DNA of 64,000 bases. It comes from an uncultured Chloroflexia bacterium. GTDB taxonomy: Bacteria > Chloroflexota > Anaerolineae > JAAYZQ01. The stretch covers positions 64,001 through 128,000 of the forward strand of contig CAVOXA010000006.1 in assembly GCA_963700285.1 (NCBI GenBank). The letters run 5' to 3'. Shown here piece after piece: positions 37,895 through 54,526 of the stretch. The notes beneath the pieces were generated by a model. The model ran no database searches, was not told where the DNA came from, and saw nothing but the letters and a program-made list of their open reading frames with translations. Made by a program: the position numbers and the translations under genes. Each line of letters starts with the position of its first letter. Position 1 is the stretch's first letter.

Positions 37895-39238
37895 CTATGG
37901 CCGCGGGCCCAGGATCGCGTCGGCCGGCATGCCTGGCTTGAGCAGGTAGTCCGAGTTTGGCAATTGTACCTTTACCGCGAATACCATGTTCACTCGCTCT
38001 TTTTCCGTCTGCACGTTCTTTGGAGTGAATTCGGCCTGTTGGGCAATGTGCGAAACGGTTCCGGTGAACACCTGGCCGGGAAAAGAGTCGACGCTCACCT
38101 CCACCGCCTGCCCCAGGAACACCCGTCCCAACTCATCCTCGGGCACATAGATCGTCAGGTGGACCGGGTCCAGGTTGGCCACGGTCAGCAGCGTCGCCCC
38201 GGGCAGAGCGACCTCGGCCGCATGGGCGGAACGGCTTGTGATCAGCCCGTCTATCGGCGCGCGCAGGATCATTTTGGCGAGCTGGGCCTCCAGTGCTGAG
38301 ACGCCCGCCTGGGCCTGAACCACCAGGGCCTCTGCCACGGCCACGTCCTCCGGCGCGGGGCCGGCTTTCAGCTCGGCCACTCGAGCCTCTGCCACCTCTA
38401 CCCCCGACTCGGCGACCTGGGCGTTGGCCTCGGCCTGATCTACCAGGCTGGCGATGGCCAAGGGCTCATTCCTCAGCGCCCTGAGCGCCGCCAGCGTCTT
38501 TTCGGCGCCGGTCTTGTCGGCCTGGGCCACCTCCAGCCCCGCCTGCGCTGCCTGTACCTGAAAATCATAGACGCGGTACAGCCCTTTTTCCTCCATCGAG
38601 CCCTGGCCGTGGTAGGGGTATCTCATGGCCTCCGCCCTGGCGATCTCCGCCCGGGCCTGTTCGATCTGAGTCTCGGCCAGATCCACAGCGGCCCTGGCCT
38701 CCACGATCTGGGACTGGATCTCCTGGGGGTTATCGAGCAAGGTCCGGGCGTCCAGAACCGCCGAGCGGGCGGCGTCCCGTTCGGCCTCAGCCTGGAGCAG
38801 CATCGCCTCGGCTGCCAGGATCTGCGCGGGATGGACGCCAGCCTGGACATTGGCCAGGTTGGCCTGGGCCACTGCTACCGCCGCCCCAGCCTGGGCCAAC
38901 TGAGCCTGGAGCGAGCTGGTGTCCAATTCGACAAGCACCTCATGCTGTTCGACCGCGTCGCCTTCCTCGGCATCCAGGCGCACGATCCTGCCGCCAAACT
39001 CAGAGACAACGGCTACCTCGTCCCCCTCGATGCTGCCTGAGGCGATGAGGGCCTCGTCTTCCGCTGCCACAGCCTGCCCACCGATGGAGGCCACGAATGC
39101 CTCGGCCCGGCTGGCCTGCAAACCGCCGTCGATCAGGAACTGCGTAGCCTGCTCCGGCGCATTCTGCACCCACCACCAGCCCCCGGCTAAGGCTGCCACT
39201 ACAATGAGTATCGAAATGATAATGAGCCCACGTTTCAT
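37895..39238 (-). CDS. HlyD-family (YbhG-like) efflux membrane fusion protein
   Basis: N-terminal TM, ASGSIE, long Ala/Gln coiled coil, APIDG, AEFTPKNVQT..ER...VFAVKV, LKPGMPADA. Confidence 0.93.
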   Translation of the reverse strand: MKRGLIIISILIVVAALAGGWWWVQNAPEQATQFLIDGGLQASRAEAFVASIGGQAVAAEDEALIASGSIEGDEVAVVSEFGGRIVRLDAEEGDAVEQHEVLVELDTSSLQAQLAQAGAAVAVAQANLANVQAGVHPAQILAAEAMLLQAEAERDAARSAVLDARTLLDNPQEIQSQIVEARAAVDLAETQIEQARAEIARAEAMRYPYHGQGSMEEKGLYRVYDFQVQAAQAGLEVAQADKTGAEKTLAALRALRNEPLAIASLVDQAEANAQVAESGVEVAEARVAELKAGPAPEDVAVAEALVVQAQAGVSALEAQLAKMILRAPIDGLITSRSAHAAEVALPGATLLTVANLDPVHLTIYVPEDELGRVFLGQAVEVSVDSFPGQVFTGTVSHIAQQAEFTPKNVQTEKERVNMVFAVKVQLPNSDYLLKPGMPADAILGPRP

Positions 39239-39251
39239 GTTTTTCCCCTGC

Positions 39252-40652
39252 TCACTGCTCTGTCAGGATCACGGCATCGGCTGGCATACCCGGCTTGAGC
39301 GCGTGGTCGTCGTTTGGCAGTTTCACCTTTACGGCAAAAACCATGTTCACCCGCTCCTCACGGGTCTGCACGTTCTTGGGCGTAAACTCGGCCTGGCTGG
39401 CGATAAAGCCAACCGTACCCGGAAAGGTACGGTCCGGGTAGGCATCCACGGTGACCGAGACCGTCTGCCCAATCTGTACCAGGCCTACCTCGTCCTCTGG
39501 CACAAAGATGGTCAGCGTCATGTTTTCCAGGTCGGCCAGGGTCGCCAGAGGCGCCCCGGGGACAGCGAGTTCCCCGACGTGGGCAGGCATCTCCAGCACC
39601 AGGCCGGAGATGGGTGCTGGCAGCACCAGCTTTTCCACCTGCACCTCCAGCAGGTCCAGCGCGGCGCGCGCCACCTCGACCTGTGCACCAACGGCGGCGA
39701 TCTGCTCCGGCGTGGCCCCAATCTCCAAACCTTCAACCTGGGTCTCGGCCAATCGAACTCCCGAGGTGGCTATCTCGTACCAGGACTCGGCGGCATTTGC
39801 GGCGGCTTGCAGGGCCACCGGGTTGGCTCGCTGTCGCTGCAGTTCAGCCAGGTACTGCGCGGCGCCCTTTTGGGCCGCCTTGGCCTGGTCCAGCCCGGTC
39901 CAGGCCACCCAAGAGTCGTAGGTTGAGATGGCCTGCTGCTGTTCAGTCTTCAGCCTGACGTCGGCCGGCAGCTTGACGCGATACTCAGAGCCGCCTACGG
40001 GAATATTGAACGGCTCAAAATCCTCCACCATGCGAGCGGCCTGATCGGCCAGGTCACGGCCAGCCTGGGCCGAATTGGCCAGCGCCTCCACCTGCTTGGT
40101 GCGCAGGTTCAGGCTCGCGACGCGAGCCCGTGCCGCCGTAATGGCCAGATCCAGTTCCTGGGGATTGTCTCGCAAGCGTTGGGCATCCTCCCAGGCCACG
40201 AGGGCGGCCTGCTGGGCAGCCCGGGCCTGTTCCAACTGTGCCCGGGCGTGGGCCAGCGTCTCCTGGCGCACGCCAGCTTTCACCTGGGCCAGGGTTGCCG
40301 CCTTCACACCCAGATCCGCCTGGGCCATCTCAATCTGGGCCTGGAGCAACGCGTCATCCAGCTCCACCAGCGTGGCGCCCGCGGTAACCTCATCGCCTTC
40401 GCCGGCATAGAGGGCCACGATGCGCCCTGCTAGCTCGGTCGTCACCGAAGCCTCGTCGGCCTCCACGAAACCCGAGGCGACAATACCTGGCGGCTCTACT
40501 TCAGGCTCCAAACCCAGCTCTTGAACTGCGCCGTCCAATACTTCTCGAGCCTGGAGCAGTAGCGTGGGGTTTTCGTTGGCGTACCACCAACCTGCCGCCA
40601 CTGCAGCCGCCACTACGACACAGACAACCGCTATCACAATCGCACGTTTCAT
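39252..40652 (-). CDS. HlyD-family (YbhG-like) efflux membrane fusion protein, paralog 2
   Basis: Same motifs: ASGFVE, APISG, AEFTPKNVQTREERVNMVFAVKV, LKPGMPADA. Confidence 0.93.
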   Translation of the reverse strand: MKRAIVIAVVCVVVAAAVAAGWWYANENPTLLLQAREVLDGAVQELGLEPEVEPPGIVASGFVEADEASVTTELAGRIVALYAGEGDEVTAGATLVELDDALLQAQIEMAQADLGVKAATLAQVKAGVRQETLAHARAQLEQARAAQQAALVAWEDAQRLRDNPQELDLAITAARARVASLNLRTKQVEALANSAQAGRDLADQAARMVEDFEPFNIPVGGSEYRVKLPADVRLKTEQQQAISTYDSWVAWTGLDQAKAAQKGAAQYLAELQRQRANPVALQAAANAAESWYEIATSGVRLAETQVEGLEIGATPEQIAAVGAQVEVARAALDLLEVQVEKLVLPAPISGLVLEMPAHVGELAVPGAPLATLADLENMTLTIFVPEDEVGLVQIGQTVSVTVDAYPDRTFPGTVGFIASQAEFTPKNVQTREERVNMVFAVKVKLPNDDHALKPGMPADAVILTEQ

Positions 40653-40674
40653 GAGCTACCCCTACACAAGAGAG

Positions 40675-41643
40675 TTACCCCTCATCTTTTGGCGCTCGGA
40701 CACTGGAGATAAAGACGTCCTCCAGCGACGGCACAATCGCATCCATCGTTCGCACACCTACTCCTGCCCGGGCCAGCAAGCCCTCGATCTTGGGCATAAG
40801 CGGCACCACGTCAGGGGCGACAGCGTGGATCAGCGCGCCATACAGCGCCACTTCTTCAAAGACGCCCATGTCCCGCAGCACCGGAAGGGCCAGGGCGGGG
40901 TCGCTGCAGTCGATCTCTAGCACCTGCCCCCGCATCCTGGTCTCCTTGATCTCTGCGGGCGAGCCTTGAGCCACAATGCGGCCATGCTGGATAAAAGCCA
41001 GATTCTGGCAGTGTTCGGCCTCGTCCATATAGTGTGTCGTGACCATGATGGTCGTACCTTCTCCGGCCAGTTCGTACAGCAGGTCCCAAAAGGCGCGGCG
41101 GGAGATCGGGTCCACGCCGGCGGTTGGCTCATCCAGAAAGAGCATCTCCGGCTCGTGAATGATGGCTGAGCCCAGGGCCAGGCGCTGCTTCCATCCTCCT
41201 GACAGGTTTCGCGCCAGCTCCCGCCCGCGCCCTTCGAGGCCGGCCATCTCTAGCACAAACTGCTTGCGAACCCGAAGTTGCCTGCGCCCCAGGCCGTAGG
41301 TCCGCCCATAGAAGTTCAGGTTCTCGTCCACAGTCAGGTCGTCATACAGGCTAAAGCGCTGTGACATGTAGCCGATGCGCTTTTTCACCTCGCTGACCTG
41401 CCTCACGATGTCATAGCCCAGCACTGTCGCCCCGCCCGTTGTCGGCTTTAGCAGGCCCAGGAGCATCCGGATCGTCGTCGTCTTGCCCGCACCGTTGGGG
41501 CCCAGGAAACCAAAGATGGCGCCCCGCTCGATGGTAAAGCTGACGCGGTCCACAGCGACAAAGTCGCCGAACTCTTTTGTCAGTTCGACGGCCTGCACGG
41601 CGTGATCGTTGGCCCTTGCTTGTCCATTATCGTTCTGTGCCAT
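40675..41643 (-). CDS. ABC transporter ATP-binding protein
   Basis: GPNGAGKTT, GYMSQRFSLY, LSGGWKQR, DEPTAGVDP, THYMDEAE. Confidence 0.95.
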   Translation of the reverse strand: MAQNDNGQARANDHAVQAVELTKEFGDFVAVDRVSFTIERGAIFGFLGPNGAGKTTTIRMLLGLLKPTTGGATVLGYDIVRQVSEVKKRIGYMSQRFSLYDDLTVDENLNFYGRTYGLGRRQLRVRKQFVLEMAGLEGRGRELARNLSGGWKQRLALGSAIIHEPEMLFLDEPTAGVDPISRRAFWDLLYELAGEGTTIMVTTHYMDEAEHCQNLAFIQHGRIVAQGSPAEIKETRMRGQVLEIDCSDPALALPVLRDMGVFEEVALYGALIHAVAPDVVPLMPKIEGLLARAGVGVRTMDAIVPSLEDVFISSVRAPKDEG

Positions 41644-41702
41644 TGTGCATCGATCCTGGCGCCCATTGCCGGGCGCCGTCCGTTCTAACCAGGTACAAGC
41701 AC

Positions 41703-42725
41703 CTATTCCTGTGGCTCCTCTGGCTGCCCACCGTTGGGGGCAAGCACAGGTGCCAGATCGGGCGCATCCATCTCTTTGCGTACCAGCGAAATGAATGCCT
41801 CCTCCATCCGGGGCCTGGTCTGGCGAATGCCGATGACCCCGATGCCCTCCGCCTGGAGCGCGCCAAGCAATGGCTCCCGGCATTCGGCCGCGCTGTCCAC
41901 AAAGACGTGGAGCAGATCGCCGTAGGTCTGGACCTCCAGCACGCCATCTAGCTGACTGACCGCTTCCTCAGCCCGGCGCAGATCCAGAGTTCGTAGCTCC
42001 ATCAATTCGCCAGGTACCAGACTCTTGATCTGGGCCGGTGTGTCGCAGACAATGATCCTGCCCTCGTACATCAGGCCCACGCGCGAGCAGCGCTCCGCCT
42101 CATCCATGTAGGGCGTACTGACAAAGATGGTGATGCCCTGCAGGTGCAGGTCCGACAGAATGTCCCAGAATTCCCGGCGGCTCACCGGGTCCACGCCGGT
42201 GGTCGGCTCGTCCAGAAAGATCACCTCTGGCTCGTGAATGAGTGTGCAGGCCAGGGCCAGCTTTTTCTGCATACCACCGGACAGATGTGCCGCCCTTCTC
42301 TTTCGGAACTCGGTAAGATCTGCAAAGCGCAGCAAGCGTTCCTTGCGCTCCCGGCGCTCGCGGCCCCGTACCTGAAAGACATCGGCGAAAAAGTCCAGGT
42401 TCTCTGTCACCGACAGATCGCCGTAGAGGTTGAAGCGTTGGGCCATGTATCCAATGCGGCGCTTGATCTGCTCCGGTTCGGAGACTGTATCAAAGCCGGC
42501 CACCTTGGCCCAGCCCCCCGTGGGATCCATGATGGCGCACAACATGCGGATGGTGGTCGTTTTTCCGGCGCCATCAGGCCCGACCAGGCCAAAGATCTCG
42601 CCCCGCCTCACTGCCAGGCTTAACCCATCCACCGCCGTGACGCTCTTGAAGCGCCGGCTCAGATTGTCCATCTCGATGACCGGGTCGTCTATCGCCATTT
42701 CTGGTTCCACTGACAGGTTCTCCAT
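41703..42725 (-). CDS. ABC transporter ATP-binding protein
   Basis: GPDGAGKTT, LSGGMQKK, DEPTTGVDP, STPYMDEAE. Confidence 0.95.
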   Translation of the reverse strand: MENLSVEPEMAIDDPVIEMDNLSRRFKSVTAVDGLSLAVRRGEIFGLVGPDGAGKTTTIRMLCAIMDPTGGWAKVAGFDTVSEPEQIKRRIGYMAQRFNLYGDLSVTENLDFFADVFQVRGRERRERKERLLRFADLTEFRKRRAAHLSGGMQKKLALACTLIHEPEVIFLDEPTTGVDPVSRREFWDILSDLHLQGITIFVSTPYMDEAERCSRVGLMYEGRIIVCDTPAQIKSLVPGELMELRTLDLRRAEEAVSQLDGVLEVQTYGDLLHVFVDSAAECREPLLGALQAEGIGVIGIRQTRPRMEEAFISLVRKEMDAPDLAPVLAPNGGQPEEPQE

Positions 42726-42746
42726 TCGGCTATCGGCCCACAGCCC

Positions 42747-43883
42747 TCAAGGTGCCTCGATCTCTGCGGAAGCGAATATCCGGATGGGCGGCGACGCCAG
42801 GATCGCGCCTTCCGGGCACTGTTTCACGCAGGCCGTGCACTGCTCACAAGCTTCCGGATCCGCCACCCATGCCTTCTGGCGGCCGTCCAGATGGTACAAC
42901 TCAAAAACCGCCTTGGGACAGACCTCCACACAGGTCAGACAGCCTCTGCAAGCCGAACGATCCACCTGCAAGGCAAAATGCTCGTCCAGATCGTAGCCGA
43001 ACTTGGCCCAGATCTTGAGCACCCAGGGCCACTTGCGGCCCCAGAAGGCTACGGTGGAACCGGCGTACAGCGGGCTAGATCCGTCGAGGTCAAAACCCAG
43101 GATCAAAGCCACGGCCAGAATGGTCAGGCTCCAGCCCACGATACTTGCCGGCGTCCAGTTGCCAAGCAACAGCCCGTAGGCCGTGACGCCGGCAACGCCA
43201 ACAAGGCCCAGCAGCAACGTCTTGACCAGGCCCACCGCTCCCGGCACCAGGTGCATCACCGGTTCGTAGAAGACAAAAACGAGGAGCGTAAAACCCCATA
43301 TCACGGCCAGAACGCCGGGCAGCGAGCCCAGAGCAAAAATGGCCAGCGGGATAGCGGCCACGATGGACATGGGCGTGGCCCACATGACCGCCATCTCCAA
43401 CCTAGCGCCCAGGGGGTACCTGGCCTGGCGCATGGCCTCCGTTTTCTGATACCCGGCTGCCACATAGTCGGGGATATCCCGAGCGTAGGCCGGCCCAAAG
43501 CGGCACCGCCAGCCGGTCTCCTCCTCCACGCGCACCACGTCAATGCCCGGCGCCGAAAACTGGGGCAAGACCAGGGTCCTGTGCTCCACCTTCTCGGCGA
43601 TGCCGCTGGTCTTTAGGACTGACGTGACCGAATGGGCATTGAGCATGCCCCCACCGGAGGCGCACCAGACGTTGATGCCCTTGCTGGGCGCAACCAACAG
43701 ATAGCAGTCCAGCCCCTTGAGCGCCCGTGTGACACGGATGACCGTCAGCTCAAAATTGCAGGTGAGCAAGACGGGCGAGCCCGGTCCCGGCCGGCCAATG
43801 ACGCGCAGCCCGGTCTCGGTCGAAAACGGGAAGAAGCGGAACATGGTCTGAATGATCGTTTTGACAGCATCAGTTACTATCAC
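42747..43883 (-). CDS. Fused HgcAB-like protein: CdhD/HgcA-type corrinoid-binding domain, ~4 TM helices, 2x[4Fe-4S] ferredoxin
   Basis: SPVLLTCNFELT, cap helix GINVWCASGGG, HR.LVLPQ.SAPG, GW...FGP.YARDIP.Y; TM block; CRGCLTCVEVCP and CEQCTACVKQCP. GTG start after a GAAGGGAG RBS. Confidence 0.9.
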   Translation of the reverse strand: MIVTDAVKTIIQTMFRFFPFSTETGLRVIGRPGPGSPVLLTCNFELTVIRVTRALKGLDCYLLVAPSKGINVWCASGGGMLNAHSVTSVLKTSGIAEKVEHRTLVLPQFSAPGIDVVRVEEETGWRCRFGPAYARDIPDYVAAGYQKTEAMRQARYPLGARLEMAVMWATPMSIVAAIPLAIFALGSLPGVLAVIWGFTLLVFVFYEPVMHLVPGAVGLVKTLLLGLVGVAGVTAYGLLLGNWTPASIVGWSLTILAVALILGFDLDGSSPLYAGSTVAFWGRKWPWVLKIWAKFGYDLDEHFALQVDRSACRGCLTCVEVCPKAVFELYHLDGRQKAWVADPEACEQCTACVKQCPEGAILASPPIRIFASAEIEAP

Positions 43884-44601
43884 TTTGACGGCTCCCTTCT
43901 GGACCGCCCCGGTCGTGCGCCCGCCCTGCCTCGATGGCGCCGGCGGGTTGGGCGGGGACGGCAACAACCAAGGTCAGCGTCCCACCCAGATACTGCCTGC
44001 GGTCCGTGATTTGAAAGCCAGATCCTGCCAGTCTCACCGCCAGGCCCGAGACCTGGCGCGTCGTATTCTGTGTCAGCACAAAGGCCAGGGCCGCAAAGGG
44101 CAGGCGCAAAAGAAAGCTCCCCACGCGTCCTGGAAATGAATCGGGCAACACCTCGTCCGCAATCATGAGGCACCCGCCGGGTCGCAGGATGCGACGGCAC
44201 TGGGCCAGCGTGTAGCCAATCTCGTCCCCTGAGAGTTCACTGAAGACCAGAGAGCTGACGACAGCGTCGAAACTGCCATCGGCAAAGGCAGTATCCAGAT
44301 CGACAGCGCCCATCTCTCGCAGGGACACAAGGTCCGCCAGGCCCGCTTCCCGCACGCGCCGGCTCGCCTGGGCCAGCATCGCCGGCGAGACGTCGATGCC
44401 AGTGACCTGGCATCCCTGCCTGGCCAATCGGAGGGCCAGAGAGCCCGTGCCGCAGCCCACGTCCAGCACCCGGTCACCTGGATCTAGGCGGGCTGCTATG
44501 TCGCTGTATACCCGCTCCAGCCTACCGGCCGTCAGCAGCCGCATCCCCCGGTCGTACCGGTACGGAGCCGTCTCTAGGACTCTCATGTACACGTAGGACA
44601 T
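43870..44601 (-). CDS. Class I SAM-dependent methyltransferase, resembling the corrinoid-protein-associated (CpaM-like) type
   Basis: VLDVGCGTG, GIDVS..ML, FDAVVS, LRPGG..MIADE; N-terminus MSYVYMRVLE.AP.RYDRG; overlaps the hgcAB-like start by 14 nt. Confidence 0.85.
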   Translation of the reverse strand: MSYVYMRVLETAPYRYDRGMRLLTAGRLERVYSDIAARLDPGDRVLDVGCGTGSLALRLARQGCQVTGIDVSPAMLAQASRRVREAGLADLVSLREMGAVDLDTAFADGSFDAVVSSLVFSELSGDEIGYTLAQCRRILRPGGCLMIADEVLPDSFPGRVGSFLLRLPFAALAFVLTQNTTRQVSGLAVRLAGSGFQITDRRQYLGGTLTLVVAVPAQPAGAIEAGRAHDRGGPEGSRQSDSN

Positions 44602-44617
44602 CTCAGGAATGAATCTC

Positions 44618-45739
44618 CTAACCTAACCGCTTGCGAAACCGAGCCGCCGACAGGAGCAAGATCGCTACCCCAAAAACCATCATGGCTACCACCTGGGGAT
44701 ACAAGATCTCGAGTCCGACTCCTTTGAGAAATATACCCCGGATAACGACCAACATGTAGCGCAGTGGTACCACGTAGGCAAAGACCTGCAGCCAACCAGG
44801 CATGGCCTCAATGGGAAAGAAAAAGCCTGCCAGGAAGATGGCCGGAAGCATCGTGAGCCAGGTCAACAGCATCGCCTCCTGCTGCGTGTTGGCCACCGTC
44901 GAAATAAAGATGCCAATGCCCAAGGACGTCAGCAAAAAAAGAGCTGACAGACCCAGTAATAGCCCCAGGCTGCCGCGTATCGGCACCCCGAACCAATAGA
45001 CCCCCAGAGCCAGTACCTCCAGAACACCGATAAATGAGACCACAGCATAGGGCACGACCTTGCCTATGATCAGTTCCAGCGAACGAATGGGCGTCACGAT
45101 CAGTTGCTCGATGGTGCCATTCTCCCGTTCGCGGACGATAGCCTGCGCCGTAAAGAGTGCTGTCAGGAAATAGAGGATCATGCCAATGATACCCGGGATC
45201 ATGAAATTCGCACTCTTCATCTCCGGGTTGTACCAGACCCTGGGCCGGACCTGTACGCCGGGCATCGAGTCTGGCTCGATGCCCGTGGTTCGCTCCAGCA
45301 CCTCCATCGAGTAGGCCTGCCCCACCGCCTGCGAGGCGGAAAACACGGTGCTGGCCACACTGGGATCCGAGCCATCAATCACAAAAGCAATCTGGCTCTG
45401 GCCCCCGGCCGCCAGCTTCTCACCATAGCCCGCAGGGATGATCACGCCAGCCCGCACCTTGCCAGCGTCCACCAGGTAGGCCAGTTCGCGCTGTGACCCG
45501 GCGTCAGCGATCACATCAAAGTACTGTGAAGCCTTGTAGGCCTCGATGAGATCGCGGCTTGCCGCCGATTTGTCCTGATCCAGGACCGCCGTACGAAGCT
45601 GGGCGATGTCCGTGGTGGCGGCATAACCCATCAGAAGCAGTTGGATGATGGGCATCAGAAGCATCACGGCCAGGGTGCGCTTGTCGCGCACGATGTGCAA
45701 AAATTCTTTGCGCATGACGGACAGCGTCCGGACGATCAT
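44618..45739 (-). CDS. ABC-2 type permease (YbhR/YbhS-like)
   Basis: KEF.HI.RD, WYNP, PG, RERE.GT.EQLIVTP, GK..PY, GFFFPIE.MP, RG..LKG. Confidence 0.93.
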   Translation of the reverse strand: MIVRTLSVMRKEFLHIVRDKRTLAVMLLMPIIQLLLMGYAATTDIAQLRTAVLDQDKSAASRDLIEAYKASQYFDVIADAGSQRELAYLVDAGKVRAGVIIPAGYGEKLAAGGQSQIAFVIDGSDPSVASTVFSASQAVGQAYSMEVLERTTGIEPDSMPGVQVRPRVWYNPEMKSANFMIPGIIGMILYFLTALFTAQAIVRERENGTIEQLIVTPIRSLELIIGKVVPYAVVSFIGVLEVLALGVYWFGVPIRGSLGLLLGLSALFLLTSLGIGIFISTVANTQQEAMLLTWLTMLPAIFLAGFFFPIEAMPGWLQVFAYVVPLRYMLVVIRGIFLKGVGLEILYPQVVAMMVFGVAILLLSAARFRKRLG

Positions 45740-45742
45740 GGT

Positions 45743-46378
45743 CTATTCCCCACTTCCGGGCCGCAGGCCGTCAAACAGCAGTGTTGCCTGGACCTCGGGC
45801 ACCTCGTGCCACCTCGACCGGAGCGGCTCGTCGTCGAGGATGCGCAGGAAGAGCAAACCGATAATCATCGCCTGCACGACACGTACCGTCAAAGGCACAT
45901 CGACCGGCCGGATGTGCCCCAGGTCGATCTGCGCCTGAAAATAGGGTTCCAGGAGCGACGAAATGCGCGAAACGTACTGCTGGTAGAACTGCTGGCGCAG
46001 CTCGGCGTTGACGAAAACCTCCGGCAGGACCGCCTGAAGCATTTCCTGCCCTTCCTGCATACGACCCATGCGCTCCCGGAGCGCAGCGGCAAAGAACGTT
46101 TTGACGTCACCATGCAGAGATTGCATCAACTCGCCAGGCAACCGCTCTAGCTCGGCGATGCGGGACATGATGACCACGAGCAGATGGAGCTTGTTGTCGA
46201 AATAGTTATAGATGGTGCCATCGGCCACGTCGGCCAGCTCGGCGATATCGCGGATGGTGGCCTGGTGAAAGCCCTTCTGGGCAAAAACCGCGGCTGCTGC
46301 GTCGAGGATCCGGGCCTCACGCTCGCGCTTTTGCCGGTCCCGCCGCGACAACGACTGATCCTCCGCTGGATTGCTCAT
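45743..46378 (-). CDS. TetR/AcrR-family transcriptional regulator
   Basis: ILDAA..VF..KGFH.AT..DIA..A.VA.GTIYNYF.NK. Confidence 0.95.
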
Positions 46379-46400
46379 AGGAATTGTCCTCCGGCGCTTT

Positions 46401-46434
46401 ATGAATGCTCGTTCAATATTGAATGAACATTCAT
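46401..46434. promoter_or_regulatory. Palindromic operator (probable TetR site)
   Basis: ATGAATGCTCGTTCAAT/ATTGAATGAACATTCAT, 17-bp arms with 2 mismatches, just downstream of the -10 box. Confidence 0.8.
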
Positions 46435-46435
46435 T

Positions 46436-46464
46436 ATTGTACCACACATCAGGCCGGATGTCAA
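46436..46464 (-). promoter_or_regulatory. Internal sigma70 promoter
   Basis: Minus strand TTGACA-N17-TACAAT with TG extension. Confidence 0.8.
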
Positions 46465-46523
46465 GGACAATGCAACAGCGCATGCAGCAGAAGCTGATTC
46501 TTAATGTACAATCGAGCAGCCTC

Positions 46524-47651
46524 CTATTCGAGGCGTCTCCGAAGAAAAAGGACCGTGATCACCATAATCACAAAGCCCAAGGCGGCCAGGCTGAGCAGTT
46601 CCCTCCAAAAAACCTCCACCCCTGCCCCCTTGAGCAGGATACCGCGCAAGATCAACAGCCAGTGCTTGATGGGCACAAAGTTGGCGGCGCCCCGCAGGAG
46701 CGGGGGCATGTTCTCCACGGGAAACGCATAGCCGGAAAAGATCATCTCGACCATGATCAGGGAAAAGGCCAGCATCAGCGCCTGGACCTGGGTTCTGGAC
46801 ACGGCAGAAATCATCAGCCCCCATACCATCTCGATGAGCAGGTAGAAAAAGGCAATGAGCAGCAACAAGGACCACGAGCCGCGCATCGGTATCTTGAAGA
46901 CAAAGACGACCATGGCCAGCATGACCAGAAAGTTCAGGTAGGACAGCATCAAAACCGGCAGCGCCTTGCCCAGGATCAGTTCCAGGCTGCGCAGTGGCGT
47001 GACCATAAGCTGCTCCAGTGTGCCCAGCTCCCGCTCGCGGGCGATGCCCAGGGAAGCCAGCATCAGCGCCACGCCGGCCAGCATGAAGCCCAATTCCGAC
47101 GGTACTTCATAGAGGGAGGTCTTGAGTTCCTCATTGAACCAGACGCGGACGTCCAGGCCGATGACCTCTCCCGCTCCCGCTGCCATCGGCCCCAGGCGCT
47201 CCAGCGCGATGTTCTGAGAATAGGTGGCGATGGCCCCCTCGGCGCTCATTTGCACGGCCCGCGCGGCGCTGGGGTCGGCGCCATCCAGGAGGACCTGGAT
47301 CTGGGCCGGTTTGTCGGCGCTGCGCAGCCGCTCTTCAAAGTCTGGCGGGATCAAGATGGCCACCAGGGCCGCCCCACCGTCGACCAAGGCCCGCGCCTCT
47401 TCCTCCCTCTGGACGTAGAAATCGGCGTCAATGGTCTCTGTGTTCTCCAACGCTTGAACCAGCTCCCGGCTGGAGGCCGAAAGGTCGCGGTCCACGACGG
47501 CTGCCGGGATATGCTCGATGTCGCCCGAAGTAGCCCAGGCCACCAGGGTCAACTCGGATATGGGCCCCAACAGCACGAACAACAGGATCAGCTTGTCCCG
47601 CCACAGATGGATCAGCTCTTTGACTGACAGGGTCCAAATGCGCGTTAGCAT
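46524..47651 (-). CDS. ABC-2 type permease (YbhR-like)
   Basis: [39 protein letters not shown]. Confidence 0.93.
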
Positions 47652-47653
47652 GG

Positions 47654-48793
47654 TCAGGTGATCTTTTTCTTAAAGAGCAGGATCGCCAGCCCCATAAAGA
47701 GAAGGCCCATGACCAGCAAGGCCAGGGCAAAGGGCCAGAGGGCATCGATGCCCTGGCCCTTGAGCATCAAGCCCCGGCCGATCATCACAAAGTGCGTGGT
47801 CGGTACCATATAGGCTTCCATCTTCATCAGCGGTTGCATGCTCGCCAGCGGGTAAAAGATGCCCGACAAAAAGAAACCCGGAAAAAAGAAGATCAGAAAG
47901 GCGCCCAGTTGCGCCGCCTGCTGGGTTTTGACAAAGACCGACAGGACCAGGGCGATGGCCAGCGACGCCAGTAAAAAGACGACGGCCAGCACCATGTACA
48001 GGGCAAAACTCCCCTTAAAGGGGGAGCTAAACCAATACACGGCCACGATGACGCATAGGACAATGGCCAGCGTTCCGCTGAGCATATAGGGCAGCAGCTT
48101 GCCCACCAGCAGCTCGGTACGACGGATAGGCGTGGCGATCAACTGCTCCATGGTGCCGTGCTCTTTCTCCTTGGTGAGCGCCATGGTGGTCGTGACCGCC
48201 GGCATGGCCATGACCATGGCGATCAACGCCGGCAAGAAGCCAATGACAGCCTTGAGCGTCGGGTTGTACCAGGTGCGCAGCCGCAGGTCCACGGGTGTGA
48301 GCAAAGCCTCGTCGACGGGCAGCCCTGCCTTTGCCGCCGCCTCGCTGACGATCTCCAGGGCGAACTGCTGCGTGTATCCGCCGATGTGCTGCAGGGCCGT
48401 GTTGGCCGTGAGCGGCTCCGTGCCTTCAACCAGAACCTGCAAGCTGGCTTCGCGTCCGGCATTCAGGTCGGCCCCAAAGCCGGGCGGGATGACGATGGCC
48501 GCCTTGGCCTCGCTGGTCATCAGCCAGTGTTCCAGGTCGTCATAGTCATCGGCCACATACTTGAGCAACACGTCGCCGGTGCCGCCCAGCCCAGCCAGAT
48601 AGCGCCGGGAGAGGATGGTTCCGTCCCGGTCCATGACCGCGACGGCCACGTTCTTGATATCCACCGTGAACGTGTAGGCCATGATGAGAAGCAGCAGCAC
48701 CGGCGAAATGGCCACCAGGATCAAGGTACCCCGGTCACGCATGATGTGGCGCGCCTCTTTGCGGATCACAGCCCAGGTTCGAAGCAGATTCAT
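47654..48793 (-). CDS. ABC-2 type permease (YbhS-like)
   Basis: KE.RHI.RD, WYNP, KEKE.GTMEQLI.TP, GK..PY, LSG..YP..SM. Confidence 0.93.
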   Translation of the reverse strand: MNLLRTWAVIRKEARHIMRDRGTLILVAISPVLLLLIMAYTFTVDIKNVAVAVMDRDGTILSRRYLAGLGGTGDVLLKYVADDYDDLEHWLMTSEAKAAIVIPPGFGADLNAGREASLQVLVEGTEPLTANTALQHIGGYTQQFALEIVSEAAAKAGLPVDEALLTPVDLRLRTWYNPTLKAVIGFLPALIAMVMAMPAVTTTMALTKEKEHGTMEQLIATPIRRTELLVGKLLPYMLSGTLAIVLCVIVAVYWFSSPFKGSFALYMVLAVVFLLASLAIALVLSVFVKTQQAAQLGAFLIFFFPGFFLSGIFYPLASMQPLMKMEAYMVPTTHFVMIGRGLMLKGQGIDALWPFALALLVMGLLFMGLAILLFKKKIT

Positions 48794-48800
48794 GGCATCC

Positions 48801-49070
48801 TTAGGACTTGATCTTGCGCATCACCCACAGGCTGATCAGACCCAGCGCAAAGGGATCGAGGGTAGAGCCGAGCACCTTGATCCAGCCGTCCTCGAAGCCA
48901 AGCGCCGGCATGAGATAGTTCCAGGTCAGAAACGACACTACAACCGTGACGACCGTGCAGACCAGGATGTCGCCCACGAGTCCATAGGGGCGCTTGCTCT
49001 TGAAGAGCATGGGCACCAGCCAACCGCCCAGAACGCCCAGCACCAAGGTCACCAGCAGGATGATCAGCAT
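48801..49070 (-). CDS. Small membrane protein (GlsB/YeaQ/YmgE transglycosylase-associated-like)
   Basis: Three TM helices, G..GGWL...., G..GDI pattern; GAGGAG RBS. Confidence 0.6.
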   Translation of the reverse strand: MLIILLVTLVLGVLGGWLVPMLFKSKRPYGLVGDILVCTVVTVVVSFLTWNYLMPALGFEDGWIKVLGSTLDPFALGLISLWVMRKIKS

Positions 49071-49091
49071 CGTTCTCCTCCTATGTCTATC

Positions 49092-49715
49092 TTATGCTCT
49101 GGCCCCGGATTGGGCCAAGAGTCCCTGCAGCAGCGCATCGGTAAATGCCTGGCTGGCCCGGACCACGTCCAGGTCTGGCTTTAACATGGCATAGGCGGCC
49201 AAGCCGTCGTAGGCGGCCATGATGGCCCACACCACACCCTCCGCGTCGACCTGGCGAAACTCACCAGACCGGATGCCATCTTCAACCAGGCCGACAAAAA
49301 GGTCCTTGTACTCGGCGAGCAGATCCATCCACAGCGCAGCGGCTTCCTCGCGACGGGGGCTCGATGCCCAGAATTCGAGGAACATGGTAAAGAGGCGAGA
49401 TCCAGACTCGGCCAGGTCCTCCATGCTGGCGGCCAGGGCCCGCAGTTTGTCCGTGGCAGTTTCGCCCAGCTCGGTAACGGCCAGCGCGCTCTCTGCCAAT
49501 TCCTCCACAAAGGACAGGATGGCCGCCGAGATAAGCTCTTCCTTGCTCTCAAAGTACCAGTAGATGGTTCCCTGGCTGACTCCGGCCTGGGCCGCGACAT
49601 CGGACACGTTGGACGCGTAAAAGCCCTTCTCGCCGAACACGGCGAGGGCGGCATCCAGAATCTGCTTGCGGCGCTCTTCCCGCTGTTGCTCGCGTTTGGT
49701 CATGGATTCAGTCAT
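49092..49715 (-). CDS. TetR/AcrR-family transcriptional regulator
   Basis: RRKQILDAA..VF.EKGF...VSDVA.QAGVS.GTIYWYF.SKEEL. Confidence 0.95.
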   Translation of the reverse strand: MTESMTKREQQREERRKQILDAALAVFGEKGFYASNVSDVAAQAGVSQGTIYWYFESKEELISAAILSFVEELAESALAVTELGETATDKLRALAASMEDLAESGSRLFTMFLEFWASSPRREEAAALWMDLLAEYKDLFVGLVEDGIRSGEFRQVDAEGVVWAIMAAYDGLAAYAMLKPDLDVVRASQAFTDALLQGLLAQSGARA

Positions 49716-49741
49716 AGACGTCCCTCCGTGATTGGATCCAA

Positions 49742-49792
49742 ACTGACTGACTGGTCAATCAGTATTGTACCACGATCTTGTGCCGTTGTCAA
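49742..49792 (-). promoter_or_regulatory. sigma70 promoter with adjacent palindromic operator
   Basis: Minus strand TTGACA(49792-49787)-N17-TACAAT(49769-49764); ACTGACTGAC-TG-GTCAATCAGT palindrome at 49742-49763. Confidence 0.8.
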
Positions 49793-51009: not shown

Positions 51010-51663
51010 GTGAGCACAGCGGAGCGACGAGCCCGTGACAAAGCTCGGCGCCGCCGGGAGATCCTTCAAGCCGCCCGGCTCGAGTTCTTTGAGCGCGGGT
51101 TTCACGATCCTACCGTGGACGACGTGGCGGCCCGGGCCCAGGTCAGCAAAGGCACCATCTACCTGTATTTTGTGAGCAAGGAGGAGATCCTTGCTCATTT
51201 GCTTTTGGAGGGCCTGGACCTGCTCCTGAACGACATGGAGGCCGCCCGCGAGCGCCAGCCTCCCCTGCCGCCCGAGCCCGCCCTGCGGTCCATGGCCGTC
51301 GCCTATCTGAGGTTCTGCCAGTCACATCCCAACTACTTCCGGCTTATCATGGCCTTTGATCGGGGACGATTCGAAGAATCGATCTCCGCCAAGCTGTACC
51401 AGCAGGTGCTGGATCAGAGCCTGCTGGGGCTCGAATTGGTGGCGCAGACCATCGAGGCCGGGTCGCTGTCCGGGACCTTCCGCACGGCCGATCCATGGCA
51501 GGCTGCCGGTTCCACTTGGGCCGCCCTGAACGGCGTCTTGGTCCTCATGGCCCACCCCTTGCGCCGGCAGCTGCTCAAGACCGATCTGGAAACCATGTTT
51601 CTGGCCACCCTGGACCTGGTGGTCACGGGGCTCAAGGCGGACCTTGGGGCGCCGTCAGGATAA
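51010..51663 (+). CDS. TetR-family regulator (probable fatty-acid degradation regulator)
   Basis: IL.AA...F.ERGF...TVDDVA.RA.VSKGTIYLYF.SKEE; heads the operon. Confidence 0.93.
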   Translation: MSTAERRARDKARRRREILQAARLEFFERGFHDPTVDDVAARAQVSKGTIYLYFVSKEEILAHLLLEGLDLLLNDMEAARERQPPLPPEPALRSMAVAYLRFCQSHPNYFRLIMAFDRGRFEESISAKLYQQVLDQSLLGLELVAQTIEAGSLSGTFRTADPWQAAGSTWAALNGVLVLMAHPLRRQLLKTDLETMFLATLDLVVTGLKADLGAPSG

Positions 51664-51684
51664 TCTCAGCAAGGAGGAGGGTAC

Positions 51685-52884
51685 ATGGAAAAAGTTGTCA
51701 TCGTCGGAGGCGTGCGGACGCCCATCGGCAGCCATGGGGGAGCCTTTCGCACACTCACAGCACAACACCTGGCCAGCCTTGTATTTCGAGAAGTGGTCAA
51801 CCGCGTTGGCATCGACGCCAACATCCTGGACGACGTGATCCTGGGCTGCATCGGCCAGCAGAGCGACGCGCCCAACATTGGCCGGGTGGCGGGCTTGCTG
51901 GCCGGCATTCCGGTACACGTGCCCGGCTACACCGTACAGCGCAACTGCGTGTCAGGCATGGTGGCCATCACCTCCGCCTGCCAGGCCATCCAGGCCGGCG
52001 ACGGCCAGGCTTTCCTCTGCGGCGGCGTCGAAAGCATGAGCACCTCGCCCTACGTCGTGCGTGGGGCCCGCTGGGGGCTCAAGCTGCGCCACGACACTTT
52101 TGTCGACACCCTGTGGGAAGGGCTGACCGATCCGGTCTGCGGCCTGATGATGGGCGCCACGGCGGAGAACCTGGCCATGATGTACAACATCAGCCAGCAG
52201 GAGCAGGACAAGTTCGCCGTCATGAGCCACAAGAAGGCATTCCGCGCGACGCGCATGGGTCGTTTTCGCGACGAGATTGTACCGGTACGGGTGAGCAAAA
52301 AGGTAGCCGGCCAGGAAGTCGCCTACGAGGACATTGTCCAGGACGAGTGCATCAACCCCACGCTCAATGAGCGCAAGGCCGCCTTGTATCCCACCGTCTT
52401 TAAGAAAGGCGGCTCGGTGACGCCGGCTAACGCCTGCCCCATCAGCGATGGGGCTGCGGCAGTCGTCGTCATGACCGCCGGCCGGGCCGAGGCGTTGGGG
52501 CTGGAACCACTGGCCAGCATCCGAAGCTATGCCTATGCCGCCCTTCCGCCAGAGATCATGGGCCTGGGACCGGCGGTCTCGGTACCCAAGGCGCTGCAGA
52601 AGGCCGGCCTCAAACTGGAGGACATCGACCTCATCGAACTGAACGAGGCATTTGCCGCCCAGGCCATTGCGGTGGGCATGGAACTGGAGAGCCAGGGGTG
52701 GGATTGGAACAAGGTGAACGTCAACGGCGGCGCCATCGCCCTGGGGCACCCGGTGGGCTGCACCGGCGCGCGGATCATGGTCACCCTGCTCAACGAGATG
52801 ATCAAGCGGGACGTGGCCCTGGGCCTGATTGCAGCCTGCGTGGGCGGCGGCATGGGCGGTACCATCATCGTCGAGCGGACATAG
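51685..52884 (+). CDS. Thiolase (acetyl-CoA C-acyltransferase)
   Basis: RTPIG, RNCVSG, GGVESMS, NEAFA, NGGAIALGHPVG.TG, CVGGGMG. Confidence 0.97.
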   Translation: MEKVVIVGGVRTPIGSHGGAFRTLTAQHLASLVFREVVNRVGIDANILDDVILGCIGQQSDAPNIGRVAGLLAGIPVHVPGYTVQRNCVSGMVAITSACQAIQAGDGQAFLCGGVESMSTSPYVVRGARWGLKLRHDTFVDTLWEGLTDPVCGLMMGATAENLAMMYNISQQEQDKFAVMSHKKAFRATRMGRFRDEIVPVRVSKKVAGQEVAYEDIVQDECINPTLNERKAALYPTVFKKGGSVTPANACPISDGAAAVVVMTAGRAEALGLEPLASIRSYAYAALPPEIMGLGPAVSVPKALQKAGLKLEDIDLIELNEAFAAQAIAVGMELESQGWDWNKVNVNGGAIALGHPVGCTGARIMVTLLNEMIKRDVALGLIAACVGGGMGGTIIVERT

Positions 52885-52894
52885 GGGGTGGGGG

Positions 52895-53155
52895 ATGGCA
52901 GACGTTGCAATGTGGCAGGACAAGCAGGTGCGAGCCGCCTTTGAAGCCAAGGCCCGGGCGCGCCTGGATGAGCTTCAGGGCGAAATAGAGGGCAAGGAAG
53001 GTATCGTGGCCATCGAGCCGGAGAGCGGCGACTTTGTTATCGGAGACACACTTTGCCAGGCAAACGCGGCCGCGTTTGTCCGCTACCCCGACACGTGGCT
53101 TTATTTCGCCCGGCTGGACAATACCGAGGCGGCCATCGCCCTGCCAACGTGGTAG
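52895..53155 (+). CDS. Small hypothetical protein (DUF5678-like)
   Basis: IVAIEPESGDF.IG......A...YPD...YF.R pattern; 86 aa. Confidence 0.55.
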   Translation: MADVAMWQDKQVRAAFEAKARARLDELQGEIEGKEGIVAIEPESGDFVIGDTLCQANAAAFVRYPDTWLYFARLDNTEAAIALPTW

Positions 53156-53281
53156 ACGGGACTCGACGTGGCGTTTGGGTTGTACGCTGAATATCTGATC
53201 CCTTGGGAGCCAAGTGGGACGTGTTGCGTGTTGCGTACTTTGTTCAGGCTCACCTACTAGAAAGCAGATAGGGAGGACAGC

Positions 53282-54526
53282 ATGTGGATTTTCAAGGTAG
53301 GCGTGGTCGGCGCCGGGGCTATGGGCGGTGGGATCGGCCAGGTGGTCACCTACGCCGGGCTGCCTGTGGTGATCAAGGATATTGACCAGGGCCAGCTCGA
53401 CGTGGCCCGCAAGCACGTCGAGGGCATCTACCAGAGCCGTGTCGACAAGGGCAAAATGACCGCCGGCCAGGTCCAGGAAAAGCTGGACCTCGTCGAGTAT
53501 ACGCTGGATTACGATGACTTTGCCGACGTGGACATTGTCATCGAGGCCGTTCCCGAGGTGATGGAGATCAAACAGCGGGTGTTCCGAGAGCTAGACGGAA
53601 TCTGTCCGCCGGACACCATCTTTGCCTCCAACACCTCGGCCCTGTCCATCACCGAAATCGGCGCGGCCACCGGCCGCCCACAGCGGATGATCGGCATGCA
53701 CTTTTTCAACCCGGCCCACGTCATGAAACTCGTAGAGATCATCCCCGGGGCCGATACGGACCAGGACACCCTGGACACGGTAGAGCAGTTTGCCCAGGAA
53801 CTGCGCAAGATCCCCGTCATCGTCCAAGAATGCCCAGGATTCCTTGTGAACCGCCTGCTAATGCCCTACCTGAACGAGGCGGCCCTCACCGTGGAACAGG
53901 GCGCGGCCAGCGCCCAGGAGGTGGACGAAGCCATGGGGCGCGGCGGCTTTGGCTGGCCCATGGGCCCCTTTTTCCTGATGGACATGCTGGGCATCGACGT
54001 CTGCACCCACGTTGGCGAATACCTTTATTCCCAATACGGGGATCGGGTCGCGCCGGCCAAGCTCTTCCGCGAGTTGTTGACAGCGGGCCGTCTTGGTGAA
54101 AAATCGGGCGCAGGCTTTTATGTCTACTCCAGTCCCGACGCTGAGCCTCTGGAGGAGATCGTCCAACGCATGCAGGACACCGGCGAGGTCGAGACCGGTT
54201 CCGCCTACAGCCCGGAGCGCCTGATCATGCCCTTTCTCAACGAAGCAGCCCTCTGTGTGGAGGAAGAGATCGCCAACGTCAACGACATCGACATGGCTTG
54301 CATCGCCGGGCTTGGCATGCAGGTGGCTCAAGACGGCGAACTCGTGCGCATGGGCCCGCTGGAGTACATGGACGAGCTGGGCCTGGATGCCGTTCTGGAA
54401 AAGTTGGAGGAGCTGGAGGCGGAGCTGGGTTCGCGCTTCCACCCCGTCGACATCCTGATCCAGAAGGTGCGCGCCGGGCATCTGGGGAAAAAGACCGGGC
54501 TGGGGTTCAAGGAGTATAGTGTGTAG
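53282..54526 (+). CDS. 3-hydroxyacyl-CoA dehydrogenase with duplicated C-terminal domain
   Basis: GAGAMGGGI, IEAVPE...K, SNTS.LSI, GMHFFNP, PGFLVNRL; two PMGP/MGP...G.K.G.GF C-domains. Confidence 0.95.
   Translation: MWIFKVGVVGAGAMGGGIGQVVTYAGLPVVIKDIDQGQLDVARKHVEGIYQSRVDKGKMTAGQVQEKLDLVEYTLDYDDFADVDIVIEAVPEVMEIKQRVFRELDGICPPDTIFASNTSALSITEIGAATGRPQRMIGMHFFNPAHVMKLVEIIPGADTDQDTLDTVEQFAQELRKIPVIVQECPGFLVNRLLMPYLNEAALTVEQGAASAQEVDEAMGRGGFGWPMGPFFLMDMLGIDVCTHVGEYLYSQYGDRVAPAKLFRELLTAGRLGEKSGAGFYVYSSPDAEPLEEIVQRMQDTGEVETGSAYSPERLIMPFLNEAALCVEEEIANVNDIDMACIAGLGMQVAQDGELVRMGPLEYMDELGLDAVLEKLEELEAELGSRFHPVDILIQKVRAGHLGKKTGLGFKEYSV

Follow-up and report, generated by a model that had tools for sequence, protein, structure and literature searches.

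A catalogued CpaM and HgcAB-like pair in a conserved, class-restricted efflux context in Anaerolineae

Fused HgcAB, or HgcAB-like, proteins, such as that of Pyrococcus furiosus, form a clade separate from the canonical mercury methylase HgcA/HgcB, and tested carriers made no methylmercury, according to three reports (Podar 2015, PMC4646819; Capo 2022, PMC10087281; Lin 2023, bioRxiv 10.1101/2022.11.21.517362). With the corrinoid protein-associated methyltransferase CpaM they make up a pair that is already catalogued in NCBIfam (NF043040 for CpaM, NF043039 for the HgcAB-like protein); because it is already curated there, the module itself is not new. Here we analyse such a pair in a stretch of 64,000 nucleotides (nt) from an uncultured Chloroflexia bacterium (Anaerolineae, JAAYZQ01; GCA_963700285.1, contig CAVOXA010000006.1, 64,001-128,000), which we call the window. 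The pair lies inside a run of co-directional genes on the minus strand (37895-49792) that otherwise encode the parts and regulators of an ATP-binding cassette (ABC) exporter, and our comparisons place the locus as a known module whose efflux context is conserved and restricted to one class.

The window pair shares with the CpaM and HgcAB-like family the two-gene layout with a stop/start overlap, the domain order of corrinoid domain, four membrane helices and ferredoxin, and the invariant residues. It differs in having no TetR gene directly upstream and in sitting between the permease and ATPase genes of an exporter, a context found only in Anaerolineae. Compared with HgcA/HgcB, the window protein has a homologous corrinoid domain that includes the cap-helix cysteine, together with a membrane domain and a 2x[4Fe-4S] partner to reduce cobalt, but it is one chain instead of two and comes with a dedicated S-adenosylmethionine (SAM) methyltransferase, a partner that canonical loci lack. 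The closest solved fold for the corrinoid domain is that of the corrinoid iron-sulfur protein CFeSP (AcsC/AcsD; 4djd_C and 2ycl_A; root-mean-square deviation (rmsd) 1.6-1.9 Å), which, with its methyltransferase MeTr, likewise combines a corrinoid carrier, a separate methyltransferase and iron-sulfur reactivation. CFeSP is soluble, draws on methyl-tetrahydrofolate via a TIM-barrel enzyme and feeds acetyl-CoA synthase, whereas the window protein is membrane-bound and has a class-I SAM methyltransferase as partner.

For the exporter, the first-pass annotation had proposed an architecture of the E. coli YbhGFSR type, which consists of the TetR repressor CecR (YbiH) and an ABC-2 efflux system whose ATPase, YbhF, carries two nucleotide-binding domains. 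The window does share with that system a co-directional cluster that encodes a TetR regulator, HlyD adaptor, ABC-2 permeases and DrrA-like ATPase domains. Two single-domain ATPase genes replace the one double-domain YbhF, and every match of the pump proteins to curated models falls below its cut-off. The window differs further in its three permeases, two adaptors, two repressors with two promoters, a small membrane protein and the methylase pair inside. Methylation followed by export, the logic proposed here for the window, has a precedent in ArsM and ArsP, where arsenite is methylated with SAM and methylarsenite is then effluxed by a dedicated transporter encoded nearby. ArsM methylates straight from SAM without a corrinoid, however, and the window has no ars genes and TetR rather than ArsR regulators.

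The two genes of the pair are as follows, with family matches in brackets.

43870..44601, minus strand: cpaM, corrinoid protein-associated class-I SAM methyltransferase, 243 residues (NF043040; Methyltransf_25, 1.4e-24).
42747..43883, minus strand: HgcAB-like fusion protein, 378 residues (CdhD-type corrinoid domain, 2.8e-18, with Fer4; NF043039).

CpaM scored 282.5 bits against NF043040, a model of type 'hypoth_equivalog' in NCBIfam (cut-off 180), its residues 2-215 covering profile positions 1-215 of 216. The HgcAB-like protein reached 393.5 bits against NF043039 (cut-off 285; residues 8-361 on profile positions 2-349 of 350), which bears out its first naming as an HgcAB-like fusion. It is a single chain with a CdhD domain at 47-168 (numbering of the long open reading frame, ORF), a membrane domain and Fer4 domains. 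The GCGTG SAM motif, D70 and the D149-E150 pair are invariant in an alignment of 24 CpaM sequences, as are cap-helix N71, W73 and C74 and the eight cluster cysteines in 30 diverse HgcAB-like sequences; Cys74 of the cap helix is the predicted cobalt ligand. An AlphaFold model of the HgcAB-like protein (predicted local distance difference test, pLDDT, 91.8; predicted template-modelling score, pTM, 0.89) shows a Rossmann-like corrinoid domain, membrane helices at 158-183, 185-204, 218-240 and 245-264, and a ferredoxin fold (2x[4Fe-4S]) at 304-364. Its best fold matches were the published HgcAB model 9a0b_A and CFeSP corrinoid domains (rmsd 1.6 Å over 126 columns), and a sequence search gave no match to experimentally solved HgcA. 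Among solved structures, CpaM matched by sequence only generic class-I methyltransferases. Predicted binding of CpaM (residues 1-218, 24-row alignment) to the corrinoid domain (residues 1-172, 30-row alignment) gave a best score of 0.21 with the mark at 0.32, and was used neither way. Assignment of CpaM as ArsM was rejected, at 53.3 bits against the 263 needed for PRK11873 and 55-67 bits against the 510-575 needed for selenoprotein ArsM models.

CpaM is a near-constant partner of HgcAB-like proteins. A pattern scan with one genome per species yielded 79 HgcAB-like loci from many bacterial and archaeal phyla, which were searched with the twelve proteins of the window and with profiles built from the matches; ORFs in all compared loci are our own calls. 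A CpaM domain lies directly upstream of the HgcAB-like gene, or in the same ORF, in 77 of the 79 loci, the exceptions being one locus with a 1.8-kb insert (L010) and one at a contig end (L065). The two proteins are one ORF in 14/79 loci, and 11 of 19 longer representatives scanned carry a near-complete CpaM fused ahead of the HgcAB-like or HgcA-like part. Metagenomes gave the same picture, with CpaM at 29 of 33 further HgcAB-like loci and the other 4 ending at a contig edge. The same scan included a built-in negative control, CpaM adjoining none of 47 canonical split hgcA loci. This adjacency, together with natural single-chain fusions, supports the functional pairing with a SAM methyltransferase that the first-pass annotation had put forward.

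Beyond CpaM, the neighbourhood holds one recurrent family. All-against-all clustering of 2092 flanking ORFs from the 79 loci returned TetR (22 loci) as the only recurrent neighbour apart from CpaM, with lesser clusters of ABC ATPases (10), other methyltransferases (10), histidine kinases (7) and ArsR-type helix-turn-helix proteins (6). In 21 of 68 assessable loci, spread over many phyla, cpaM has a same-strand TetR gene ahead of it that ends within 300 nt of its start, a placement that fits induction by a small molecule. No transporter gene and no ars or mer gene recurred in the flanks of these 79 loci, nor did anything there point to the substrate. Within 10 kb of the pair, ABC-2 permease genes were found at 6/79 loci, HlyD genes at 4/79 and ABC ATPase genes at 13/79; the figures are 5, 4 and 7, respectively, when only the 32 loci with 5 kb or more on each side are counted.

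The family also comes in other forms. A third architecture (L053:6190-8078, L072 and L219-L235) has CpaM fused to an HgcA-like protein (about 530-600 residues), followed by a separate small HgcB-like ferredoxin gene. This CpaM::HgcA-like form is common in Chloroflexota, scores just below the NF043039 cut-off and branches beside canonical HgcA in a quick tree. Some HgcAB-like forms (P0167, P0190, P0206, P0213, P0217, P0253 and P0266) are longer, with about 120-190 additional residues at the N-terminus. These residues matched no NCBIfam family at E <= 1e-10, and a Pfam scan of the six forms other than P0167 was likewise negative at E <= 1e-5.

Within the window, our ORF calls and a Pfam search of the products gave twelve co-directional ORFs in the order tetR1-small-permA-permB-tetR2-permC-cpaM-HgcAB-like-atpA-atpB-hlyD1-hlyD2. 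This is the one-strand order originally proposed, and Pfam agrees with every assignment, the small protein being without a family. The three junctions of the pair measured exactly as first reported: 16 nt from the permease stop to the methyltransferase start, a 14-nt overlap between the methyltransferase and HgcAB-like genes, and 21 nt from the HgcAB-like stop to the ATPase start. The HgcAB-like gene starts with GTG at 43883, with GAAGGGAG ahead of the start codon. The remaining gaps are of 2-59 nt, and the sole larger one, of 145 nt, lies ahead of tetR2. The start of tetR2 is most likely the ATG at 46378, behind GGAGGA, rather than the first ATG of the ORF at 46483, and that of atpB is most likely the ATG at 41643 rather than 41883. 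G+C around the pair is 0.60-0.62, against 0.59-0.65 in neighbouring DNA; there is no anomaly, and a recent foreign insertion is not indicated. Of the listed sequencing runs containing DNA from 42000-47000, 15 are DNA runs, with shares of 0.23 or less, and none is an RNA run. The pump genes and their regulators are listed in the direction of transcription.

49092..49715, minus strand: tetR1, TetR-family repressor, 207 residues (TetR_N 1.8e-19, TetR_C_6 1.3e-10; BetI/FadR-type matches only sub-threshold).
48801..49070, minus strand: small hydrophobic protein, 89 residues (no family match).
47654..48793, minus strand: permA, ABC-2 permease, 379 residues (ABC2_membrane_3 1.2e-50; RbbA permease part 246 bits, below cut-off).
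46524..47651, minus strand: permB, ABC-2 permease, 375 residues (ABC2_membrane_3 1.9e-40).
45743..46378, minus strand: tetR2, TetR-family repressor, 211 residues from ATG 46378 (TetR_N 1.9e-16).
44618..45739, minus strand: permC, ABC-2 permease, 373 residues (ABC2_membrane_3 3.4e-55; RbbA permease part 259 bits, below cut-off).
41703..42725, minus strand: atpA, ABC ATPase with one nucleotide-binding domain, 340 residues (ABC_tran 7.8e-29; DrrA subfamily 273.8 bits, cut-off 312).
40675..41643, minus strand: atpB, ABC ATPase with one ABC_tran domain, 322 residues from ATG 41643 (ABC_tran 5e-30; DrrA subfamily 280.9 bits).
39252..40652, minus strand: hlyD1, HlyD-family membrane-fusion adaptor, 466 residues (HlyD_D23 6.8e-25; PRK03598, 'secretion protein HlyD', 149 bits, below cut-off).
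37895..39238, minus strand: hlyD2, HlyD-family adaptor, 447 residues (HlyD_D23 3.1e-19; PRK03598 174 bits, below cut-off).

Homologues of the small hydrophobic protein adjoin permease genes in pump operons with the pair and, in 6 of 8 fetched regions, without it; judged by this company, it is a component of the pump and not of the methylase pair. Elsewhere in the window, a separate TetR gene followed by thiolase and 3-hydroxyacyl-CoA dehydrogenase genes (51010-54526, plus strand) forms an unrelated fatty-acid oxidation cluster.

The association of pair and pump was examined in 401 sampled genomes of the window's class, 27 of which had an HgcAB-like match over the cut-off; 40 regions were fetched and annotated. 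Every pump-linked locus belongs to Anaerolineae. In a quick maximum-likelihood IQ-TREE search, the window locus forms a clade with L009, L010, L011 and L088 (SH-aLRT, the Shimodaira-Hasegawa-like approximate likelihood-ratio test, 99). Same-strand pump genes flank the pair in 11 of the 12 sampled genomes of this clade. These represent no fewer than three families, HgcAB-like identities among pump-embedded loci go as low as 53%, and the gene orders are the following three.

Order A (the window's family): tetR1-small-permA-permB-tetR2-permC-[pair]-atpA-atpB-hlyD-hlyD.
Order B (G239, G161): tetR2-permC-tetR1-permA-permB-[pair]-atpA...
Order C (G006): small-permA-permB-[pair]-tetR2-permC-atpA...

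A second, distant form of the pair, the CpaM::HgcA-like fusion with its separate HgcB-like gene, is linked to the same kind of pump. In G019, this form is contiguous with an orthologous pump in the order tetR-[pair]-small-permA-permB-tetR2-permC-atpA-atpB-hlyD, with a permA 59% identical to that of the window. It lies upstream of the same pump type in L053 and L072, where the genes between pair and pump encode an F420H2-dependent quinone reductase and a patatin-like phospholipase (L053, 8071-9497) or a patatin-like protein (L072, 11662-12579); in G386 the distance between this form and a divergently oriented pump is 3 kb. A single shallow subclade takes in all of these pump-linked CpaM::HgcA-like loci, with unlinked ones among them. 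Taken together, the two forms of the pair account for at least two associations with the pump. Given the 11/12 clade genomes and the distant form in G019, L053, L072 and G386, the embedding reported in the first-pass annotation goes beyond a chance insertion in a single genome.

Several loci in this set show variations of their own. In the window's genus, L197 (G263:C4:197500-217400) holds the whole operon in the window's order; tetR1, tetR2, permC, cpaM and hlyD2 are intact, and permA, permB, the HgcAB-like gene, both ATPase genes and hlyD1 are each in 2-4 ORF pieces, reflecting decay or assembly indels. A second methyltransferase gene, of UbiE/Methyltransf_11 type, stands between the HgcAB-like gene and the first ATPase gene at L201:7273-7920, L198:4722-5219 and L197:8565-8957, a place where the window has just 21 nt; other methyltransferases occur within a few kb in 10/79 loci. 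Foreign-looking inserts were seen twice, a 1.8-kb one with a DUF3368 ORF between cpaM and the HgcAB-like gene (L010/L216:6921-8697) and one with a 670-residue ORF without Pfam match between the HgcAB-like gene and atpA (L009:10600-12612). Larger pump operons without the pair, each a co-directional cluster with six ABC-2 permeases, two TetR regulators, two ATPases and two HlyD adaptors, are present at L237, L238 and L242 (G096, G388 and G218).

Two stretches of the window carry promoter-like and operator-like elements.

49764..49792, minus strand: P1, sigma-70-like promoter TTGACA-17-TACAAT with extended TG, ahead of tetR1 (11/12 consensus matches).
49742..49763, minus strand: O1, palindrome ACTGATTGACCAGTCAGTCAGT directly after the P1 -10 box, predicted TetR1 site.
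46436..46464, minus strand: P2, sigma-70-like promoter TTGACA-17-TACAAT with extended TG, in the 145-nt gap (11/12 matches).
46401..46435, minus strand: O2, two tandem TGAAT-N5-ATTCA-type inverted repeats after the P2 -10 box, predicted TetR2 site.

A promoter scan of the region found 9 promoter-like sites against 2.8 expected. P1 is kept in the relatives L197, L201, L202 and L009, in all four of which O1 is near-identical at the equivalent position, and P2 is kept in L197, L201, L203, L009 and L200 and also in L227 and L204, the O2 repeat pattern likewise being kept in relatives. Both promoters and both operator-like sequences occupy equivalent places though the proteins of these relatives are only 60-80% identical, and P2 and O2 also precede tetR2 in G019 and G006, where the methylase pair has another position in the operon. 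We infer that O1 and O2 are the binding sites of TetR1 and TetR2. A strict regular-expression search for P1/O1 and P2/O2, aimed at pump-only operons, matched only L227 and L204; these patterns are narrow, and absence elsewhere therefore means little. The twelve genes probably form two TetR-controlled units and not one simple operon, because the 145-nt gap contains P2, itself a strong promoter-like site, and the palindromes of O2, and the methylase pair probably sits in the P2 unit with permC, both ATPases and both adaptors.

These observations lead us to a proposal for function, to which we give a probability of about one in two: the pair would pass a methyl group from SAM to a cysteine-ligated corrinoid and on to an acceptor, and the pump would expel the compound or its methylated product, the two sharing a substrate. 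Established corrinoid-protein chemistry and the CpaM fusions suggest the steps. CpaM would bind SAM and methylate Co(I) on that side of the corrinoid domain where the cap helix lies, electrons for returning inactive Co(II) to Co(I) would come from the ferredoxin domain of the same chain, and the membrane would be where the methyl group then reaches its acceptor. The genes would be induced by a ligand of the TetR repressors, methylase and pump would act on one substrate, and the role would be protection against a toxic compound rather than synthesis. Because SAM alone already methylates nucleophiles, one may speculate that the corrinoid route serves an acceptor to which the methyl group must be transferred in another way. 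The frequency of TetR control in different phyla, like the pair's placement in a TetR-controlled exporter here, fits an inducible response to a harmful small molecule. The broader claim, that the family is an inducible corrinoid methylase for toxic small molecules, wired at least twice in Anaerolineae into an ABC-2/HlyD pump as methylate-and-export resistance, is tentative, and we hold it to be on the doubtful side.

Several observations weigh against this coupling of pair and pump. Homologues of permA occur in 222/401 class genomes, compared with 27/401 for HgcAB-like matches over the cut-off, and eight regions around good permA homologues away from HgcAB-like genes contained neither cpaM nor an HgcAB-like gene (0/8), four of them being whole operons. 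One genome that is 96% complete and has no HgcAB-like match (G005, L241) shows the window's exact order without the pair, permC overlapping atpA. Pump and pair are both present but unlinked, on different contigs, in G388, G218 and G243. The pump adjoins none of 11 loci of another two-gene pair subclade in the class, and among CpaM::HgcA-like loci an adjacent pump of this type is missing from 15/17, including L223, which shows two weak ATPase matches on the opposite strand. Outside Anaerolineae, no locus among the 79 has this pump type beside the pair; an ABC-2 pair in one Actinomycetota locus is small and unrelated. Even in the window's own clade, G193 (L205) carries a stand-alone tetR-cpaM-HgcAB-like cassette. 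As the pump exists whole without the pair, it is an exporter complete in itself, with the pair as an accessory in certain lineages. The embedded arrangement may be one ancestral insertion that was vertically inherited, in which case the 11 genomes are not 11 independent events, and since the sampled genomes are related the counts overstate independent support. The metals and metalloids listed as substrates in the first-pass annotation also lose weight, since TetR regulators seldom sense metals. One of the outcomes that it named as refuting the coupling is seen in part, since pump operons of relatives do occur without the pair, yet 11/12 clade genomes keep the pair inside. Pairs do lie near exporters in Anaerolineae, yet ABC-2 genes accompany only 6/79 loci overall.

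Much of this would also be expected if the pair were a passenger that entered an exporter operon once and was kept for its TetR-controlled expression, with no substrate in common with the pump, and if the link of the CpaM::HgcA-like form reflected descent or chance. The same-order pump without the pair in L241 and the four whole operons among the eight fetched regions favour such an insertion, as do the absence of any pump from the pair's surroundings in most lineages and the single shallow subclade in which pump-linked CpaM::HgcA-like loci mix with unlinked ones; the embedded clade is moreover monophyletic, so that one event may explain 11 of the 12 genomes. A mere passenger fits less well with a pair that has stayed between pump genes through three gene orders, at least three families and identities down to 53%, or with the deeply divergent form in G019, which is contiguous with an orthologous pump at another operon position. 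By a rough estimate, a 2-kb pair would have a probability well under 1% of landing by chance inside one of the roughly two 10-kb pump operons of a 7-Mb genome. We regard this explanation as possible but rather unlikely. Alternatively, the substrate might be made by the cell itself: the pair would methylate a membrane compound or secreted metabolite (a quinone, lipid or natural product), and the exporter would take it to the envelope or out of the cell. CpaM's nearest named relatives do include the UbiE/MenG quinone methyltransferases, albeit at 59.7 bits for TIGR01934, far below the cut-off; the quinone reductase and patatin-like genes of L053, the patatin-like gene of L072 and the second UbiE-like methyltransferase gene after the HgcAB-like gene in some relatives point the same way. 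No biosynthetic genes flank the pair in the window, however, no biosynthetic family recurs beside it across the 79 loci, and inducible efflux and detoxification genes are usually laid out in this way, with two TetR repressors that have operators on their own promoters; we regard a role in production as improbable.

The relation to mercury methylation needs separate comment. The canonical mercury methylase has a separate HgcB with a C-terminal cysteine pair. The window protein has no cysteine beyond its second cluster motif, its cap helix reads NVWCASGG, and it scores 151.9 bits against the HgcA model NF040863 (cut-off 275). One report gives the accepted HgcA cap-helix motifs as N(V/I)WC(A/S)(A/G/S)GK, all ending in GK (PMC10087281). 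On these three counts, the sub-cut-off score, the GG-ending cap helix and the missing C-terminal cysteine pair, we rejected the window protein as a canonical HgcA. The same genome does encode one on another contig (L002:1387-2397), which scores 442.9 bits against NF040863 and has the cap helix NVWCAAGK; behind it comes an HgcB-like ferredoxin (L002:2382-2684) with the C-terminal sequence ...TCGGRETCCG. This hgcA-hgcB pair lies at about 135115-136412 of G000:C22 and makes the organism a candidate mercury methylator whatever the fused paralogue does.

Could the fusion protein nevertheless methylate Hg(II) as HgcAB does, with the pump removing methylmercury? Its corrinoid domain retains the N-V-W-C core of the cap helix and its best fold match is the HgcAB model, and Podar et al. 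treat the P. furiosus negative as no proof that the protein cannot catalyse the reaction (PMC4646819). Set against this are the low NF040863 score, the departure from the GK ending given in PMC10087281, the lack of the C-terminal cysteine pair that the genome's own HgcB has, the canonical hgcA-hgcB elsewhere in that genome and the absence of CpaM from all 47 canonical hgcA loci; PMC4646819 and PMC10087281 also record no methylmercury from any tested carrier of fused HgcAB. Mercury is thus unlikely as the methyl acceptor, and a true mercury methylase coupled to a methylmercury pump is very improbable, the least probable of all the explanations weighed here.

A full-text literature search, in which supplements were not examined, found no paper on CpaM, on a methyltransferase partner of fused HgcAB or on a link of the pair to an ABC-2/HlyD pump. 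What the locus presents does not appear to be a new kind of machine: both parts are of known kinds, and their coupling is confined, in the genomes compared, to one bacterial class. The role of fused HgcAB proteins has been a question since 2015, and such proteins confuse environmental surveys of mercury methylation. That they recur in physical linkage with a repressor-controlled exporter suggests what class of function to expect, the handling of an inducing small molecule at the membrane, and the ligands of the TetR repressors and the substrate range of the pump offer a practical way to narrow down the methyl acceptor. Should the methylate-and-export proposal prove true, the mercury methylase's sister family would have been assigned a function for the first time, and this would be the first case of a B12-dependent modifying enzyme built into an efflux pump.

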